Assembly: GCA_032372955.1 (NCBI GenBank)
Contig: GCA_032372955.1_4725.1
Strand: one strand, 5' to 3'
Source: Escherichia coli
GTDB lineage: Bacteria; Pseudomonadota; Gammaproteobacteria; Enterobacterales; Enterobacteriaceae
Length of the DNA stretch: 64,000 nucleotides
This document shows positions 51,018 through 59,664 of the stretch, piece after piece (position 1 is the stretch's first letter; every line of letters starts with the position of its first letter). The position numbers and the translations under genes were made by a program. The notes under the pieces are model-generated. The model saw only the letters and a list, made by a program, of their open reading frames with translations, had not been told where the DNA came from and ran no database searches.

Positions 51018-53024
51018 ATGATTACAACACAGACAACCACCACGAAACGTCGTGTGAGGGCACGCGAGCTTATGCATTGGCCGGTTGATGAGGTGTTCGA
51101 ATGGGCACAGCCTAATGACCGTGTGTATATCGAGATGGACGATGGCGTTCATGAATTGCGTGCACGACGCATTTTCTTTAGTTACATGCACTGGTCTGTG
51201 CATCGCATGTATCCTGAGACCCCACTAACAAAAGAGAACCTGGTTGATAAACGCAAGTTCACAGCGGGTTCATCGGTTGCGTTGCAAAGCGCAGCGTATC
51301 GTCAATGCATGTATGCTTATCCACAAGAGAATCGTGAGGTTCTCTGGAAAGCATTGTTCGATATGTTTAACAATGTGTATAACTTCTTTACGTATGCGTT
51401 GGAGGAATACGTAACAACGATTTGCGCGGACGATTTTTATCAGATTACCGTACACCCCGAAGTTAAGAAAATCATCGCCGAAGCGGAACCCACCCGCGAA
51501 GGTATCGAAAGCGCATACAAGAAACTGACAAAGGTACTGAGCACCGATAAAACGTTACACGCAAACCCTATTGCACGTGCGGTAAGAACCGAACACGTTT
51601 CGATCGGACAGGTGCTGCAGTGTATTGGGATGCGTGGATTCTTGACTGATATTAACTCCGAGATATTCCGTGACCCAGTGATGCGGTCATACGCAGCTGG
51701 TTTGATCTCTCTTCCAGACAGCTTGAAAGAAAGTCGTTCTGCGGCAAAATCGTTGCTGTTCAACAAAGAGCAGATTAAAAAGTCTGAATATTTCGGTCGT
51801 GAACTTCAGATAGCGACAGCGGTTGTACAACGACTCCATCCTGGTGATTGTGGTAGTAAAGAGACCATCCCGATGCCAATCCGTGATGAGACCGACCTGC
51901 GTGGCTTCCACGGTCGATTCATTATTCGTGACGACGGTTCGTTGGTAGCGATACAACCACACATGAAAGAATTGATCGGCACCACAGTGCGCATGCGCTC
52001 TGTTAACTATTGTCATCATCCCGATCCTGCTGGGGTATGTACGACGTGTTACGGTGAATTAAGTCATAACTTCGCATTGACTGATAATGTCGGCGACGGT
52101 GCAGCGCGTACCTGTTCGCAACAGGTAACGCAGAACATTCTTTCTACCAAACACCACGATGGTTCGTCAACGGTATCCACAGCACCAATCCCACCGGAAT
52201 ATCAACATATCCTTCGCTACAGCCAGAACATGAACGACATCAAACTCGCACGTGAGCTGAAAGGTAAACACGTGTTGATTAAGATGAAGTTAGGTCTTGC
52301 GAACATGTTGTACGACGTAGCGGAAGCGGAAGAAATCAGTTCGCTGATACCGCAACGTCTGTTTAACATGACGCTTTGCGATATGGAGATTTACGACAGG
52401 AAAGATGAAAGCTATCGTAAGCTCAAAGTCAATTTCGATTTCTGTGGTCGTCCTGTTGTACCGAGTAAAGCGTTTATCCGGTATCTCAAACGCCATAGCT
52501 GGGAAGTGACGTCTGACGGGATTGTGATTTTCGACTTGAAACATTGGGACAATTCACGTACGTTATTCCAGATGCCGTTAATCCACAAAAACATGATGGA
52601 ATACGCAAAAGAAATCGAACGTGAATTCAAATTCGGGAAAGGTTCTTTCAGTGCCGGATTCCTCTCGGAAGACGAAGCAACACCGGAAGAAGTTGCAAAC
52701 GTGCTGTACTATTGGCATCGCCTGTGTGCTCAGCGTCTGCGAATGAACCTTTCGCATCTCGACGTTATTCTCTACGCCAGCATGATTCGTTCACCGCACA
52801 CGAAAGATTATCGCATGCCGAAACAGGGAACAACACGATACTTCAGTACCTTCAAGAAGAACATGAACATGCGCTCCTTGAGTATGAAGTTCGCTCACCA
52901 AGAGCAGCTGGATGCGTTCCAAAACCCGAACAGTTATATCCCAACCATGAAGCCGGATCATCCGATCGACTACATGCTGTTACCGCGTAAAGAACCTAAA
53001 CCGGAGGATGTAATCACGTTATGA
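51018..53024 (+). CDS. multisubunit RNA polymerase beta-prime-like subunit, C-terminal fragment
   Basis: VRMRSVNYCHHPDPAGVCTTCYGELS aligns to E. coli RpoC [22 protein letters not shown] (Zn-binding region); GDGAARTCSQQVTQNILSTKHHDG aligns to [28 protein letters not shown]. Confidence 0.75.
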   Translation: MITTQTTTTKRRVRARELMHWPVDEVFEWAQPNDRVYIEMDDGVHELRARRIFFSYMHWSVHRMYPETPLTKENLVDKRKFTAGSSVALQSAAYRQCMYAYPQENREVLWKALFDMFNNVYNFFTYALEEYVTTICADDFYQITVHPEVKKIIAEAEPTREGIESAYKKLTKVLSTDKTLHANPIARAVRTEHVSIGQVLQCIGMRGFLTDINSEIFRDPVMRSYAAGLISLPDSLKESRSAAKSLLFNKEQIKKSEYFGRELQIATAVVQRLHPGDCGSKETIPMPIRDETDLRGFHGRFIIRDDGSLVAIQPHMKELIGTTVRMRSVNYCHHPDPAGVCTTCYGELSHNFALTDNVGDGAARTCSQQVTQNILSTKHHDGSSTVSTAPIPPEYQHILRYSQNMNDIKLARELKGKHVLIKMKLGLANMLYDVAEAEEISSLIPQRLFNMTLCDMEIYDRKDESYRKLKVNFDFCGRPVVPSKAFIRYLKRHSWEVTSDGIVIFDLKHWDNSRTLFQMPLIHKNMMEYAKEIEREFKFGKGSFSAGFLSEDEATPEEVANVLYYWHRLCAQRLRMNLSHLDVILYASMIRSPHTKDYRMPKQGTTRYFSTFKKNMNMRSLSMKFAHQEQLDAFQNPNSYIPTMKPDHPIDYMLLPRKEPKPEDVITL

Positions 53025-54595
53025 AGTTAGCTCGTATCGACGTCTTCTCGCATGGCATGAGGCTGAGCGGATACGGACTTCGATTTGCCCATCTTATCGG
53101 CCATTACCTTCGAGACCGTTGTTTGCATCTGAGGAAACGGCGTGACCCTCGTACACGGAGAATGGTTACCGATACCATAAACACGTATGCCGCGGCAAGA
53201 AGCGATTATAGCGAGGTATACTTACTCCGCGAACAGTTGAAATCGTTTTTGGATTTTATCTTTTCCCGAGGGATACGAAAAGAGTGGTTGGAAATCGTCT
53301 ATCACGATCCGGTACCAGGTAAGGAAGTGGAGTTCGTAAAGAAATGGAAGTTTCCATGGCGTGAAGATCAGCAAGAATGGTTGGAGTACATGGACGGGGG
53401 TAAGGATACCCCCTTCAGAATGAGCCTAAACACCGCTCAAACGGGGTCGGGTAAAACAGCCATGTCTCAGGAGATTACCTTCCGACGCGGTGTACGGACG
53501 GGCATCATTCTGTCGCCGAGATACATGCCAGGCTGGCGAAGCTCACTACTGAACTTCTTCGGAATGGAACCAGGGGACGTTATCGAGATACGCGGGAACG
53601 CTAAGGAGGATCCACCGCATCCCGACATTCCTCGTTACAGTATGTTGGAGTTTCAAACCTTGGTTGAACAAGGTGAACTCGACTTCAAAATCGCATTGTT
53701 CTCCTTGAACATGTTCCAACGTTATATTGCGGACTACGAGAAGAATAACTGCGTTGCGCCATATGCCTTTCATCCCGCTGAGTTTTGGGAAAAGACCGGC
53801 ATAGGTTTGCTGATTCATGACGAGTGTCACGAAGCATTGCATTTCTTGTTTAAGGTCAAGTGTTACGCCAATATTCCGGAAATCATTTATCTGTCGGCAA
53901 CAGCGGTATCCGATGATCCGTTTATCGAACAGATGCTGTATTTGATGTATCCGAAAGAAGCCCGTTATGCGAAAGGCGAATACAAGAAATACATTGCGGT
54001 AAATGCGGTAACGTACCGACTACGCAGTACAGATAAAGTCAGATACAAAGGGTTTGGTGGAGCTTATTCGCACACGATATTCGAACAGTCTATCATGAAG
54101 AACAAGCAACTCAAACTCGCGTATTTTAACTTCATCTATACCGTTATTATCAAGGGTTTCATGAACCAGTATCAGGAAGGTATGAAGATGCTGGTGTATT
54201 GTGCGACCGTTGATATGTGTAAGTCGTTGTCGCATTATCTCAGTGAACGTATTCCTGAGCTAGAGATCGGTCCTTATACTGCTGAAGAAGATTTCATGGT
54301 CTTGCTGGATAACGATATTAGCGTTACGACAGTGAAATCGGCAGGTACCGGTATCGACCTTCCTGACTTGGTGATGACGTTCATGACGTTAGCGATGGGG
54401 TCACGAACCGGCAACATTCAGGTGTTGGGACGACTGCGTCAGCTGAAAGGGAAGTTTGAAGGAATGACGCCAACGTTCTGGTATCTGGTATGTACTTCTA
54501 TCGAAGCGCACCGTAAATACCATCAGCGCAAGGTGGAGTTCTTCAGCGACAAAGTGCTTACCCAGCGTGTTATCGATGAAGATTTTGAATTGTAA
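53021..54595 (+). CDS. SF2 DEAD/DEAH-box family helicase
   Basis: Walker A AQTGSGKT; motif II LLIHDECHEA; motif III YLSATAV; motif V/VI KSAGTGIDLPD and QVLGRLRQ. Confidence 0.75.
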   Translation: MKLARIDVFSHGMRLSGYGLRFAHLIGHYLRDRCLHLRKRRDPRTRRMVTDTINTYAAARSDYSEVYLLREQLKSFLDFIFSRGIRKEWLEIVYHDPVPGKEVEFVKKWKFPWREDQQEWLEYMDGGKDTPFRMSLNTAQTGSGKTAMSQEITFRRGVRTGIILSPRYMPGWRSSLLNFFGMEPGDVIEIRGNAKEDPPHPDIPRYSMLEFQTLVEQGELDFKIALFSLNMFQRYIADYEKNNCVAPYAFHPAEFWEKTGIGLLIHDECHEALHFLFKVKCYANIPEIIYLSATAVSDDPFIEQMLYLMYPKEARYAKGEYKKYIAVNAVTYRLRSTDKVRYKGFGGAYSHTIFEQSIMKNKQLKLAYFNFIYTVIIKGFMNQYQEGMKMLVYCATVDMCKSLSHYLSERIPELEIGPYTAEEDFMVLLDNDISVTTVKSAGTGIDLPDLVMTFMTLAMGSRTGNIQVLGRLRQLKGKFEGMTPTFWYLVCTSIEAHRKYHQRKVEFFSDKVLTQRVIDEDFEL

Positions 54596-54663: not shown

Positions 54664-55557
54664 ATGTCACAAGTAAGAGGCGTGAAACAAATCGCCAATT
54701 TAATGATGTTAAGTGGTGAGACACAGCAGGAACGTGAGCTGGTCTTCTTTGGTAAACTGGCTGAAGACGGTGTTGAACGTCTTCGTCAAGTCGCATCAAA
54801 AATCGAACATATGGTGCAACATCAATGGTTGTTTGATAACACAGCCGTTGGTGGTGTGAAAGGTCAGGTGCGCGCACGTGCGATACAGATCGATAACGAA
54901 GAACCGAAATACATCATGACTACGAAGGTGTATCGCGGTCCAGGTGATGCAACGGAAAGCGAAGTCGAAATTCCGGTCGAGATGTTTGACGCGATCGAAC
55001 GTATGGCTCCTGAAGGCCAAGCGAAAACACGTTACACCGTAGAAAGCGCTGATGGTCTGGCATGGGAAGTTGACGTCATCTATACACGAGACCACCAGGT
55101 TGTTGAGTGGACGAAGATCGATATTGAAATTCCGGCTGGAACTTATCTTCGTGAAAATCCGACGTTGCCTGAAGCGTTGAGTGATGTGTTTGTGCAGATG
55201 ATCGATCGTCCTCACGCAAAACGTACGGATGAAGAGAACGCTATTCTTGACGATCTGTTCAAGAACAAATTCTACATCAAGAACGATAAGGTTGTGGTGA
55301 GCAAACTTCCTGAAGGGTTTGAACGCTTTGTTGATCCTAAGGTCGTCATTGAAATGCTGATGCCTGCCATCGAACCTCTCGTAAATATGATTCCAGCGTT
55401 AAGCTACAACGAGAAGTATTTTGATTTCGATGAAGAAGGTCAGCTGAAAAGCGCTTTACAAGAACTCAAGCATGCCGCACTCAGTGTCTTACGTTTAAGT
55501 AAGAAGAACAACGAAGAGTGTGATTGCGACCAAGATAAGAATGGAGAAAATGAATGA
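54664..55557 (+). CDS. hypothetical protein
   Basis: 297 aa; ggag RBS. Confidence 0.5.
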   Translation: MSQVRGVKQIANLMMLSGETQQERELVFFGKLAEDGVERLRQVASKIEHMVQHQWLFDNTAVGGVKGQVRARAIQIDNEEPKYIMTTKVYRGPGDATESEVEIPVEMFDAIERMAPEGQAKTRYTVESADGLAWEVDVIYTRDHQVVEWTKIDIEIPAGTYLRENPTLPEALSDVFVQMIDRPHAKRTDEENAILDDLFKNKFYIKNDKVVVSKLPEGFERFVDPKVVIEMLMPAIEPLVNMIPALSYNEKYFDFDEEGQLKSALQELKHAALSVLRLSKKNNEECDCDQDKNGENE

Positions 55558-55892
55558 ACGTACAACAAATCTGTTTAATCGATGATCAGTTCAGTGAAAT
55601 TAACGGTGAGCGTTACAATGTTGTAAGCTGGACGCTTTCGATGGTCCAGGCTGCTGAACAATTCCCGATGGACAAACACAGCCCTGAAGCGTTCCGCGAT
55701 GTCTATAAACAAACCCAGCTGGTTGACCGTAAACTACCCGAAGGTTACGACGACGAGAAACTACTGAACGATATTAAGCGTGCGTTCGCCTTACACATGC
55801 TAACCTTAACCGAAGACGATCCTTTAGAAATCCCTGACGAGTGGCTTATCTACGATATGGAAGCCTACTTCATGAAAGAACTCTGGTTCTAA
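55554..55892 (+). CDS. hypothetical protein
   Basis: 112 aa; ggaga RBS; ATGA overlap with upstream stop. Confidence 0.5.
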   Translation: MNVQQICLIDDQFSEINGERYNVVSWTLSMVQAAEQFPMDKHSPEAFRDVYKQTQLVDRKLPEGYDDEKLLNDIKRAFALHMLTLTEDDPLEIPDEWLIYDMEAYFMKELWF

Positions 55893-55910
55893 ATTAAATT
55901 GACATAAACC

Positions 55911-55967
55911 TTCCTCCCCGCCCGTTATGGGTAGGGAGGAAGATATGCTAACTATTTTTTTTTTTAC
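55911..55967. terminator. bidirectional hairpin with long T-run
   Basis: cttcctccc ... gggaggaag then a T11 run, between convergent genes. Confidence 0.55.
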
Positions 55968-57415
55968 TCGGTGAAGTGTGGTTTATAACCAGCCTGCCAT
56001 GCGGCGGTCATGGCGTCGTAGTTGATGTGTGAAGTGCCTGCCGGGAATGTCCAACCACTCAGATCCTGATTGAACGCGAAGCACCCAGACAACATATTGT
56101 TTGCATTCTTAACAGACGAAACATCCCACGAACCGATCGGTTGGTTGAATGTAGCGCAACCGTAGAAGAGGTCCTTCATTGAAGTAATGTTGCGGGTGTT
56201 CCATTTGGTGATGTTCACGTCGTTAATAACGCTGCATCGCGTAAACATACCTTCTAACGATGTCCAGTATGCCGGGATATAATCGGGAACCTTAGTTAAA
56301 CTGTTCGCCGCAAGGAATGATGGGGCCTTAGGTAATCCGTTGTTCCAGTCAACGATTTCAGTGATGTTACCACCGGTGAAGCTTTGCTGTACCTCTGTAT
56401 CTTCAACATTGGTAGGGGTACCCGTAGCGACGATCGTACGTTCCGTAGTGTCCGCATAAGTGTGCCGATATTCATTATCGCCTGAGTCCTGCGTCGTCTT
56501 ATTCCCATCACCCCAATCGATATTGACATTTGTCCAACCATCTAATGACAATATAATGCTGCCGCCTTTTGTTTTAAGAACGTATTGGATTGGTTTAGGT
56601 GAAGCGTGACCAACAACCATAGCACCCTTAAGGCTACCGATAACCCAATCTTTCTTGGTGGTTACCAGTAACTCGGCGTCACCGTATGACCGCACCTCTA
56701 CTCTACGAGCGTCTTCGCTTCCGTTAATTGTCTGCATTGCTTGTTGCATTTGTTCGCTGGTAATATCACCATAACGAACCATGACGTTCAGGATATTCTG
56801 GAAGTACGCAGCGTCAAGGACACCTTCAGTTGTTTCGGCATTTCCGTTTTCGCCGATAACCGAGGTTGTTGCTAACAGTAACGAACCAGATGTGTCAGCT
56901 TCAACGCCATCCAGATAAACCAGATTCGTAAGATTGGTTTGCTTGATGATCGTAATCAAGCTCAACGTATCGTTAGCGATATTGAACTGAAGATTACCAG
57001 CCCAAACATAAGACGTGTTTGCAACCGGAACCGTAATGTCTTTAATACCGGTGTCTTCGAACGTAATCTGCTTATTCAGCTCGGATTCGAGGAAGTCGAC
57101 GGTTGTGTCGAATACCAATCCGTAACGTTCAGCGATCGTGTTGATGATATCCCTTACGGCGGTATCATTTTTAACGATAACCCGTAACGGGATCCCAGTG
57201 AAGTTTTTAGCGATGTCTCGACGGATATAGGTCAGGGACTGCTCGTTAAAGTAACGGCTAGCATCGTTCGGTTTGATCGTAACAACAACCGTTCCGGGCA
57301 CTTCGCTTACCGGTTCAGTTAGTTCAAATTTTACGTCGTCTAATGTCAGCTGTAAGCTGTTTTTGCTATTTACTAACGCGAGAAGTTCGTCTTTCCAGCT
57401 TTGTTTGAGTTTCAT
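55964..57415 (-). CDS. BspA-like/DUF285-type repeat protein (candidate fibre or adhesin)
   Basis: 483 aa; C-terminal repeats GMFTRCSVINDVNITKWNTRNITSMKDLFYGCATFNQPIGSWDVSSVKNANNMLSGCFAFNQDLSGWTF match the F..C..FNQ.I..WDVS.V..M pattern. Confidence 0.45.
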   Translation of the reverse strand: MKLKQSWKDELLALVNSKNSLQLTLDDVKFELTEPVSEVPGTVVVTIKPNDASRYFNEQSLTYIRRDIAKNFTGIPLRVIVKNDTAVRDIINTIAERYGLVFDTTVDFLESELNKQITFEDTGIKDITVPVANTSYVWAGNLQFNIANDTLSLITIIKQTNLTNLVYLDGVEADTSGSLLLATTSVIGENGNAETTEGVLDAAYFQNILNVMVRYGDITSEQMQQAMQTINGSEDARRVEVRSYGDAELLVTTKKDWVIGSLKGAMVVGHASPKPIQYVLKTKGGSIILSLDGWTNVNIDWGDGNKTTQDSGDNEYRHTYADTTERTIVATGTPTNVEDTEVQQSFTGGNITEIVDWNNGLPKAPSFLAANSLTKVPDYIPAYWTSLEGMFTRCSVINDVNITKWNTRNITSMKDLFYGCATFNQPIGSWDVSSVKNANNMLSGCFAFNQDLSGWTFPAGTSHINYDAMTAAWQAGYKPHFTE

Positions 57416-57481
57416 TTATTCTGCCTTATTAAATAAGTACAACGCATATACGTCATACGATCTTGCAACAAATACAGCATA

Positions 57482-57509
57482 AAGCTCTGCATGATGTCAG
57501 GTAGAGCTT
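57482..57509 (-). terminator. hairpin downstream of minus-strand helicase gene
   Basis: aagctct ... agagctt arms. Confidence 0.35.
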
Positions 57510-57514
57510 CTTAA

Positions 57515-59596
57515 TCACCATTCCAAGAACGCAGGTCGTGGTTTAATATCGTATTCCGTGGTGTTTACGGTAACGTATTGATCGTATCCTTCCATCGCCA
57601 ACGTTTCTTGCAAGTTAACATCATCTTGCTTGTTCACAACATATTTGACACCCGTGATTTCTTCAACAAGCTGTCGACTTAACTCCATGATTTCGTGGCT
57701 ACGTGTAGAAACGTTACCCTCGCTTCCCGTATCTAACATGAAACGATAAATCCGAACAGGTTGCGTTTGCCCTACACGGTCAAGACGGCTGATGGCTTGG
57801 ATTTCATCGGATGAACGCCATGGGTTGTTCAGGAAAAGACCGACATTACACATCAGCATCGGAACCCCTTCAGCTAAGCTATCAAATGTTGCGATAGCGG
57901 GACCGCTGTCAGGATCATCGCGTAAGCGAGCAAGTATCTGGTTGATGTTCTTGTTGGTCTTCCCGTAAATGGGTTCAGGTAAGAAACCCGCATCACGAAG
58001 CATGTTGTCGACGCGCTCAACCACCTGAACGTACGACGTGAAGATCAACACTTTGGCTTCAGCGTTGTTGATGTACCCTTCGAAGTCGATGTACTCCACC
58101 ATGTCGACATGACACCGAATGCGGGCTGCACCTAGAACACGGGCCAACGCTTCACCCTGAATTTTCAACCCAACGTACTTGATGACACTCTTGGCGTCTT
58201 TGAAAGCAATCCTTAAATCGGAAGGAAGAACCGGCATGATAGAACGTTTTTCAAACGCATTGCAGAACATCGCATCTTCTTTGTCTCTGACGGGATCGTA
58301 ACCTTTCTGGAAACGAGCGACGATCGATTCGTATCGAGATAGCTCTTTACGTTCTCCGTCGGTACGAATAGTCTTACGATAGTAGTCCAAGGCGTCATCA
58401 AAAATCTTTCTGTAGTGTCCCCAGTTATCCTTGTAATACTTCGCCCGATCGCGTACAAATATCGCCATGTCGTCGCGGATACTCGAGATGGTATAATCGC
58501 TGCCGTTAGGGAGCTTCACGTAAACATCCTGAACTTCCGGTCGGGTTTTACGATAAGCTTCTTTAGGTACAACATGCATCATGAACCCAAGACGATGTCT
58601 GAGGATATCGTTAGCGCGACTGCTGGTTAAACCGTAAATCGCTTTGAAGCTATCGACCACCTGTCCTTGGAACATCGGGTCGATACAACCTAAACATGGG
58701 ATCATCTCAGAACCCATCTGTTTAACGGGCGTACCCGACATAAACAAGACATGCACATCCGCATTCATGGTCTGACGCATCGTCTGTACGAGATCAACCA
58801 ATCGTTGGGAACGTTGGCTGTTCTTGTCGTTGAAGTTATGGCTTTCGTCAACCACGATCAACACGCGCTTCGCTGTGCGTTTATGCTTGATCATTACATC
58901 GTTTAATAAACCCATCGACTCGTAATGCAGAAAATAATACTTATCGCTTTTCTGCAACTGTGATGGTGGCATTGTATCTGACCAGAACGCGGTTTCTGTT
59001 GCGGGGTCAACGATGGCTTTGTTTACATCGGATTGCCATGCTGAACGCATGGTGTTCTTAGGACAGCAGACCACAAATACATCGACGTTCATTGCGGCGC
59101 TTAAAGCCAATGCGGTGATTGTTTTACCGGCACCAGCACCCATCGCACACACGTATCCTTTCAGTCGGTATTTAGGTACGTTACGGTTATAGATGTCGAT
59201 AAACTCATCTTGATAATCGAACAGGGAGAGCGTTAGCATTTTGTTCATGCGTGCTTTATCGAGGATTGCAGGTTGTTCGATTGTGGTATTTTGCAGCCAC
59301 GTTTCCTGCAGCAGTACCTCAATAAGGTGTTTCAGCATGCGTTTGTTACTGCGGGTATTCTTTGCTTCGATGATCGTTTCGAGAATATAAACGAAATCGG
59401 GAAGGTAAAAGTTGTGGAGACTGAGTCCACTAGAAGAGAAATTACGAAACATATGTTTCATAAATCGGGAGGTACCCCATATTCGCTGAATGTCATCTGA
59501 AAGACGCCAGGCATCGATACCCCCGATATGCACGGTGTTGTTACTCTGATTTTTAACCGCTATTCGGTTCATTAAACGATTGATTCTATCCAACAT
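57515..59596 (-). CDS. SNF2-family helicase/ATPase
   Basis: Walker A GAGAGKT; DExH VVDESHNF; motif III MSGTPVKQ; motif VI QAISRLDRVGQTQPVRIYR. Start set at ATG for MLDRINRL; the track extends to 59644. Confidence 0.8.
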   Translation of the reverse strand: MLDRINRLMNRIAVKNQSNNTVHIGGIDAWRLSDDIQRIWGTSRFMKHMFRNFSSSGLSLHNFYLPDFVYILETIIEAKNTRSNKRMLKHLIEVLLQETWLQNTTIEQPAILDKARMNKMLTLSLFDYQDEFIDIYNRNVPKYRLKGYVCAMGAGAGKTITALALSAAMNVDVFVVCCPKNTMRSAWQSDVNKAIVDPATETAFWSDTMPPSQLQKSDKYYFLHYESMGLLNDVMIKHKRTAKRVLIVVDESHNFNDKNSQRSQRLVDLVQTMRQTMNADVHVLFMSGTPVKQMGSEMIPCLGCIDPMFQGQVVDSFKAIYGLTSSRANDILRHRLGFMMHVVPKEAYRKTRPEVQDVYVKLPNGSDYTISSIRDDMAIFVRDRAKYYKDNWGHYRKIFDDALDYYRKTIRTDGERKELSRYESIVARFQKGYDPVRDKEDAMFCNAFEKRSIMPVLPSDLRIAFKDAKSVIKYVGLKIQGEALARVLGAARIRCHVDMVEYIDFEGYINNAEAKVLIFTSYVQVVERVDNMLRDAGFLPEPIYGKTNKNINQILARLRDDPDSGPAIATFDSLAEGVPMLMCNVGLFLNNPWRSSDEIQAISRLDRVGQTQPVRIYRFMLDTGSEGNVSTRSHEIMELSRQLVEEITGVKYVVNKQDDVNLQETLAMEGYDQYVTVNTTEYDIKPRPAFLEW

Positions 59597-59636
59597 AATC
59601 GCGCTCGATTTAATAGAATGTATGATAAAAACTCCT

Positions 59637-59664
59637 CCCCACACCTTTCCTGGGGAGGAGGCCG
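59637..59664. other. GC-rich hairpin in divergent intergenic region
   Basis: 9-bp stem ctcctcccc/ggggaggag. Confidence 0.35.

Follow-up and report, generated by a model that had tools for sequence, protein, structure and literature searches.

The minus-strand gene at positions 55964..57415 of a 64000-nucleotide (nt) stretch of DNA from Escherichia coli (assembly GCA_032372955.1, contig GCA_032372955.1_4725.1; the whole stretch is referred to here as the window) was shown to encode a protein of 483 amino acids (aa), which is probably a modular, accessory adhesin carried on the virion of a nucleus-forming jumbo phage related to Goslar. The window DNA is 96.2% identical to that of the chimallivirus Escherichia phage vB_EcoM_Goslar, itself a jumbo phage of the nucleus-forming type, and the deduced protein exhibits 95.4% aa identity to Goslar gp161 and is of equal length. 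The gene had originally been predicted, from the DNA alone, to encode a DUF285/BspA-like repeat protein on the minus strand and was put forward as a candidate receptor-binding or host-range determinant, and the open reading frame (ORF) list bore out this placement, with an ATG-to-TAA ORF spanning exactly the interval given above. The original prediction overlooked a second module, the N-terminal DUF7941 domain, and it is this domain that would account for incorporation into the virion.

The domain composition, the virion association and the proposed host-recognition role of the 95%-identical Goslar protein have already been published and are not new. The analysis presented here makes modest additions to that description, namely the position of the boundary between the anchor and the C-terminal cassette, the difference in repeat number between paralogs, and the existence of disrupted alleles.

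Domain architecture of the gp161 ortholog

The N-terminal segment of the protein was matched by Pfam family DUF7941 (PF25613) at aa 4-185, with a score of 88 bits against a cutoff of 27 (E 1e-24) and covering profile positions 5-191 of 276; the C-terminal globular part of the family is absent from the protein, as it is from Goslar gp23. PHROG 1037, annotated as 'virion structural protein', also matched this N-terminal segment. Goslar gp22, gp23, gp31, gp33 and gp34 were all found to be strong DUF7941 matches, among which gp22 is the closest relative of the N-terminus studied here (34% identity). When a profile built from these DUF7941 sequences was compared with solved structures, the sole chain matched was 9xqd_0 (PHIKZ127, i.e. 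phiKZ gp127 in PDB entry 9XQD; E 2.9e-17). A PDB sequence search with the single protein returned nothing meaningful, and phiKZ gp127 was reached through the DUF7941 profile only. The structural atlas of phiKZ assigns gp127 to the star-lobe complex of the outer peripheral baseplate, where it occupies the end of the gp139 band (PMC13250141). phiKZ gp127, Goslar gp22 and gp23 and the window protein all possess the N-terminal DUF7941 domain and the linker that follows it; however, whereas the first three consist of DUF7941 only, the window protein carries a 300-residue cassette, composed of a β-sandwich and a leucine-rich repeat (LRR) solenoid, in place of the C-terminal globular domain.

When orthologs of gp161 were compared with a group of gp92-like paralogs (see below), the only invariant columns common to both groups in the N-terminal half were located at aa 155-179, within the linker, the invariant residues there being T155, I156, I157, L165, Y167, S178 and L179. 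This stretch is predicted to be disordered in the monomer (single-chain AlphaFold2 model), and its invariance fits a conserved docking peptide.

The protein was modelled with AlphaFold2 on the basis of a 49-sequence alignment, yielding predicted local distance difference test (pLDDT) values of 80-97 for aa 180-483. This part of the model commences with a helical connector (helices at aa 202-214 and 220-237; pLDDT 80-94), at which the hypervariable part of the protein also starts, followed by a β-sandwich that contains a conserved DWGDG...H.Y motif and was assigned to no family and, finally, by an LRR solenoid with a C-terminal cap. The solenoid is closest to the TpLRR/BspA subfamily, its best structural matches being of the surface-protein type, and is predicted to comprise roughly six turns, the last three of which would correspond to DUF285/PARCEL repeats.

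The repeat assignment of the original prediction was substantiated by a Pfam scan, in which DUF285 (PF03382) matched aa 385-456 with 77.1 bits against a cutoff of 25 (E 1.2e-21), increasing to 80 bits (E 1.5e-22) when the isolated C-terminus was used as the query. The NCBIfam Mbov_0838 family, which represents PARCEL-repeat surface lipoproteins, matched the same stretch (E 3.3e-14), while TIGR02167 was matched in two stretches at 26.4 bits, i.e. below its curated cutoff of 30. Three contiguous 26-residue units were shown to be in register (aa 385-410, 411-436 and 437-462, with cores FTRCSVIND, FYGCATFNQ and LSGCFAFNQ, respectively), of which the middle unit alone displays a nearly full F..C..FNQ.I..WDVS.V pattern. 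Across the orthologs, the framework residues of the repeats (L/F, C, FNQ, W and V) are constant and the intervening positions variable. LRR_5 and other LRR families of Pfam gave no match at E values up to 0.1 or 10. At the DNA level, tandem or direct repeats were not detected in the repeat-coding region; a single imperfect 17-nt overlapping palindrome (56121-56152), too weak to score, is located among the codons of the middle repeat (FNQPIGSWDV) and is reminiscent of the dyad symmetry that has been described for the DNA encoding PARCEL repeats.

Neither a signal peptide nor a lipobox or membrane segment was identified in the protein, its highest 19-residue Kyte-Doolittle mean being 0.92 and its N-terminus being hydrophilic. 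Display of the cassette would therefore go through the phage-specific anchor domain.

A nearly invariant putative anchor and a hypervariable cassette

To compare conservation along the protein, identity to the window protein was calculated for 54 full-length orthologs in 20-residue blocks. The first 180 residues were shown to be 95-99% identical to the query, whereas each block beyond aa 180 exhibited 69-89% identity. Averaged over all pairs, identity was 95.8% in the N-terminus and 71.8% in the remaining part of the protein (minimum 35.8%). In a comparison with the related phage sequence in assembly GCA_961210045, the flanking genes were 97-99.7% identical and the N-terminus of the gp161 ortholog 98% identical, while the values for the β-sandwich and LRR parts were 78 and 74%, respectively. 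One allele, P0056, retains 94% identity in the anchor and 39% in the cassette, and two alleles with anchors that are 99% identical (P0017 and P0056) share only 39% identity in their cassettes. Judged from these sequences, aa 181-483 represent a local mosaic or hypervariable cassette with a sharp boundary at ~aa 180.

Relative to Goslar (L001 8001-9452), dN/dS was 0.04 for the anchor (dS 0.23) and 0.73 for the LRR part (dS 0.05), with dS amounting to 0.23 in codons 1-180 and 0.03-0.11 thereafter; all of these values derive from small counts. The uneven dS hints at recombination with a breakpoint close to where the domains meet. A conserved N-terminus combined with a hypervariable C-terminus is the pattern that would be expected of a host-interaction module.

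The window protein differs from Goslar gp161 by 22 substitutions, 11 of which fall within the last 138 residues and include the C-terminal tip (AGYKPH versus PDHKPR). Dozens of orthologs, with 60-97% identity, were found on contigs of ~235-247 kb, which represent Goslar-like phage genomes present in Enterobacteriaceae sequencing runs; among the orthologs in the large protein collection searched, none was identical to the window allele. RefSeq already carries a BspA/DUF285 annotation, the name given there resting on the DUF285 relationship.

Virion association and proposed mode of action

A preprint of April 2026 lists gp161 among ten Goslar DUF7941 proteins, describes it as a combination of DUF7941 and LRR, and proposes a role in host recognition (10.64898/2026.04.21.720040). 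Virion mass spectrometry, which had been put forward as a check together with the original prediction, has in effect been performed on this 95%-identical ortholog: gp161 was detected in CsCl-purified Goslar virions by 27 peptides (53.8% coverage), at an estimated 74-174 copies per virion (~110), compared with estimates of ~580 copies for gp22 and ~2140 for gp23 (10.64898/2026.04.21.720040). Together with the strong repeat-family match, this detection speaks in favour of the original prediction, which is partly supported. The same study reported that purified gp22 assembles into filaments and that in AlphaFold models the linker of one DUF7941 protomer docks head-to-tail on the N-terminal domain of the next; it proposed that DUF7941 filaments bear host-recognition domains and that a baseplate-anchored 'DUF7941 fibre cloud' serves in host recognition (10.64898/2026.04.21.720040).

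By analogy with these homologs, the DUF7941 domain and linker of the window protein would attach to, or co-polymerize head-to-tail with, the abundant gp22 and gp23, DUF7941 proteins that are thought to form flexible filaments anchored on the outer baseplate. The C-terminal ~300 residues (connector, β-sandwich and LRR solenoid) would then be displayed outward and could bind a component of the bacterial surface, as is suggested by the fold class, the virion association of the ortholog and the evolutionary pattern. Such binding would increase or tune adsorption. The anchor would remain constant, with the cassette diversifying and moving from one related phage to another, and the protein as a whole would be accessory rather than essential. 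The domain composition, the fold class, the virion association of the ortholog and the conservation pattern have been shown; incorporation of this particular protein into filaments, ligand binding and an effect on host range are what we infer from them.

Comparison with a paralog and with known systems

The genomes that encode gp161 orthologs also encode, at another locus, a 584-aa gp92-like paralog (the P0059-P0110 group), which is 44-48% identical to the window protein over 92% of the query. These proteins are not orthologs and occur in the same genome at a separate locus. The paralog likewise consists of DUF7941, connector, β-sandwich with the DWGDG...H.Y motif and DUF285 LRR, but differs in possessing four extra PARCEL repeats (seven units compared with three in the window protein) and in its structural neighbourhood. 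In assembly GCA_961210045.1 (CAUIQD010000007.1; L003 6001-11348), for example, the 584-aa gene directly precedes a gene for a 175-aa DUF7941 protein and one for a 967-aa tail fibre with a Peptidase_S74 chaperone domain. A 775-aa variant (P0087) was found to contain a second β-domain and repeat block.

Bacterial surface proteins of the DUF285/PARCEL/BspA-TpLRR type, such as Mycoplasma lipoproteins, Treponema pallidum TpLRR and Bacteroides BACOVA_04585, share with the window protein the 25-26-residue repeat, the hydrophobic/Cys/FNQ framework and the variable positions (PMC2996958), as well as the LRR solenoid fold and a repeat number that differs between paralogs. A tandem array of ~25-residue units is the hallmark of PARCEL proteins (PMC2996958), and the array of the window protein is short in comparison, with three canonical repeats only. 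A further difference is that the window protein lacks a secretion signal or lipid anchor and possesses the phage-specific anchor domain instead; a membrane-targeting signal is present in many, but not all, PARCEL members and was not found here. DUF285 proteins have also been reported in the particles of the giant virus AaV (PMC7507832), and are annotated, though uncharacterized, in other jumbo phages.

Searches of Pfam and PHROG with the window protein returned no match to tail-fibre, tailspike or chaperone families, and a Foldseek search of the PDB gave no match with E ≤0.001. In classical modular phage receptor-binding proteins, attachment is mediated by a conserved N-terminal domain and binding by a C-terminal domain that can be exchanged, and the window protein resembles them in its invariant anchor, sharp boundary and mosaic or hypervariable distal part. 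Unlike them, however, it lacks a trimeric fibre or chaperone signature and is apparently dispensable, and it is not homologous to them. An LRR as binding module is unusual among characterized phage receptor-binding proteins.

Evidence against an adhesin and alternative explanations

Several observations weigh against an adhesin function. The β-sandwich gave no specific carbohydrate-binding match, and the AlphaFold2 model of the DUF7941 part was of such low confidence (pLDDT <50 over aa 63-176) that it was not used. The gene sits among helicase and RNA polymerase genes, outside any structural module. Allele identity shows no obvious relation to the host genus with which the assemblies are labelled, such labels being weak evidence in themselves; a Salmonella-labelled and a Shigella-labelled allele are 99-100% identical. 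With regard to the particle, the Goslar virion preparation held chimallin and PhuZ assemblies too, so that detection of gp161 by mass spectrometry does not prove its incorporation, and the Goslar cryo-electron microscopy baseplate maps are without DUF7941 density (10.64898/2026.04.21.720040). Finally, the gp161 ortholog is broken in two lineages, with each broken form present on several contigs: one allele (L006 2501-3952, Logan assembly SRR6504847) contains a nonsense codon at position 277, while the other (L007 2043-3316, Logan SRR23754925) combines a 2-nt insertion at nt 452 with a 180-nt deletion that removes most of the β-sandwich. Such natural nonsense and frameshift alleles make the gene look dispensable; they argue for an accessory adhesin, as opposed to an essential receptor-binding protein.

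The particle data and the broken alleles also speak for a different explanation, according to which the protein is not a virion component, but co-purifies as part of self-assembling DUF7941 aggregates (gp22 polymerizes alone) and acts within the cell, e.g. in late organization of tails or particles, or else is the product of a decaying accessory gene of little function, pseudogenized as it is in at least two lineages. We regard this as unlikely, since the phiKZ homolog has been resolved in the baseplate, most of the 54 full-length orthologs retain an intact frame together with the framework residues, and the low dN/dS of the N-terminus is indicative of strong purifying selection. Alternatively, the protein could belong to the DUF7941 filaments as a subunit with a structural or regulatory task (a cap, brancher or cross-linker), its LRR binding another phage protein. 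The binding surface would then be under constraint from a partner that the phage itself encodes, yet the C-terminal part falls to 39% identity where neighbouring genes and anchor remain at 94-99%, and disrupted alleles persist; this role thus appears rather improbable, if somewhat less so than the preceding one.

It has also been considered that the protein may be particle-borne and delivered into the cell, or cytoplasmic, with the LRR binding a host protein in the manner of the LRR effectors of bacterial pathogens. This is judged very unlikely, given that the N-terminal family is found on the outer baseplate in phiKZ and forms extracellular filaments in vitro, that the N-terminal module does not belong to the PF12699 family of inner-body and injected proteins, and that the solenoid resembles surface proteins of the BspA/TpLRR type. 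More broadly, only a slim chance is given to the cassette acting inside the cell at all, be it as an injected effector gripping a host protein or as a tail-to-tail organizer of nascent particles. If this were true, DUF7941 would serve in general to load the virion with cargo domains that can be exchanged, and the hypervariability would reflect an intracellular arms race and not receptor switching. An accessory adhesin carried on the virion thus remains the explanation that we favour.

Genomic context

The features identified in and around the gene are listed in Table 1. At its 3' end, the gene is convergent with a plus-strand gene (55554..55892), as the original prediction had stated for the surrounding genes in general. 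The statement did not hold for the 5' side, where the neighbour, an SNF2-type helicase gene (57515..59596), was found to be co-oriented on the minus strand, so that the gp161 ortholog and the helicase gene constitute a two-gene minus-strand island between plus-strand genes. The locus is organized in the same way in Goslar, in which gp161 is preceded by the SNF2 helicase gene, followed by the convergent gp162 and accompanied by the same hairpins.

Table 1. Coordinates of the gp161 ortholog, its protein domains and adjacent candidate hairpins in the window
Feature	Position	Strand	Basis
Coding sequence, 483 aa, ortholog of Goslar gp161 (YP_009820846)	55964..57415	-	ORF; 95.4% aa identity; synteny in relatives
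DUF7941 N-terminal globular domain and linker, aa 1-185, proposed anchor/polymerization module	56861..57415	-	Pfam; PHROG; conservation
Helical connector, start of the hypervariable part, aa 186-237	56705..56860	-	AlphaFold2 helices; conservation drop
β-sandwich with conserved DWGDG...H.Y motif, aa 238-345	56381..56704	-	
LRR solenoid of TpLRR/BspA type with C-terminal cap, aa 346-483	55967..56380	-	
Three canonical 26-residue DUF285/PARCEL repeats, aa 385-462	56030..56263	-	Pfam; NCBIfam; register
GC-rich hairpin, candidate bidirectional terminator, in the convergent intergenic region	55910..55942	.	Fold; conservation
Weak AT-rich hairpin, 20 nt upstream of the ATG	57437..57458	-	Terminator-like scan, 9 pairs (3 G-C); also in fold
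Hairpin directly after the helicase stop codon, matching a terminator annotated in Goslar	57481..57510	-	Fold; Goslar annotation

In the wider surroundings, the gp161 ortholog is embedded among two helicase genes (53021-54595 and 57515-59596) and split genes for RNA polymerase β subunits (neighbouring orthologs of Goslar gp165 and gp171). In this it differs from the other nine DUF7941 genes of Goslar (at gp22-34 and gp86-93), which are located among structural genes. A tblastn search of the 64000-nt window with the protein recovered only the gene itself, the DUF7941 paralogs being encoded elsewhere in the genome, and tRNA genes were not found in the window. A relationship to defence systems was considered and rejected, as PADLOC returned no match for the 483-aa protein and the paper on an Avs5 trigger concerns another protein.

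The SF2 helicase encoded at 53021..54595 is 524 aa long both in the window and in Goslar (gp164). In L006 (5322-5831), the length called for its ortholog is 876 aa and LAGLIDADG_3 is matched weakly, while in L007 (4684-5816) the length is 753 aa, which suggests an intein or homing-endonuclease insertion in these two sequences that is not present in the window.

Candidate terminators

According to the original prediction, the gene is framed by terminator-like hairpins, and stems were indeed identified on both sides. The hairpin in the convergent intergenic region downstream was predicted to fold on the minus strand with a free energy of -28.9 kcal/mol (z -5.9), none of 200 shuffled sequences folding as well, and on the plus strand with -26.1 kcal/mol (z -4.5), followed by a run of 11 U residues 12 nt downstream; its sequence is identical in Goslar and in GCA_961210045. 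On the upstream side, the stem that follows the helicase gene is a perfect 12-bp stem in Goslar (L001 7902-7935) and in GCA_961210045 (L004). The window copy is weaker than that of Goslar, with two non-compensating substitutions that leave a stem of ~8 bp, and read-through from the helicase gene may thus be higher in this phage. A generic promoter and terminator scan of the region revealed no enrichment (five terminator sites compared with 4.4 in shuffled sequences), so that the separately regulated module proposed in the original prediction derives support from the individual hairpins only.

Another terminator-like hairpin was observed at the far end of the helicase gene. The ORF list starts this gene at a GTG codon at 59644, within a strong CCTCCCC...GGGGAGG hairpin with a T-run behind it (59634-59658), whereas Goslar is annotated with an ATG at the equivalent of 59596 (693 aa) and with the CCTCCCC...GGGGAGG hairpin as a terminator. 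A terminator-like structure thus immediately precedes a co-oriented gene, within an intergenic region that separates divergent genes. A family of such hairpins across the window was sought and rejected, as there was one exact match only.

Significance

As far as this window is concerned, the gene encodes no more than the ortholog of a protein that has been described before. Chimalliviruses are attractive candidates for therapy, as most DNA-targeting defences are kept at bay by their nucleus-like compartment, and their host recognition is poorly understood. An LRR adhesin, if true, would add a fold class to the known receptor-binding repertoire of phages. Furthermore, if cassettes anchored through DUF7941 mediate adsorption, the boundary at ~aa 180 would represent a natural splice point for host-range engineering.

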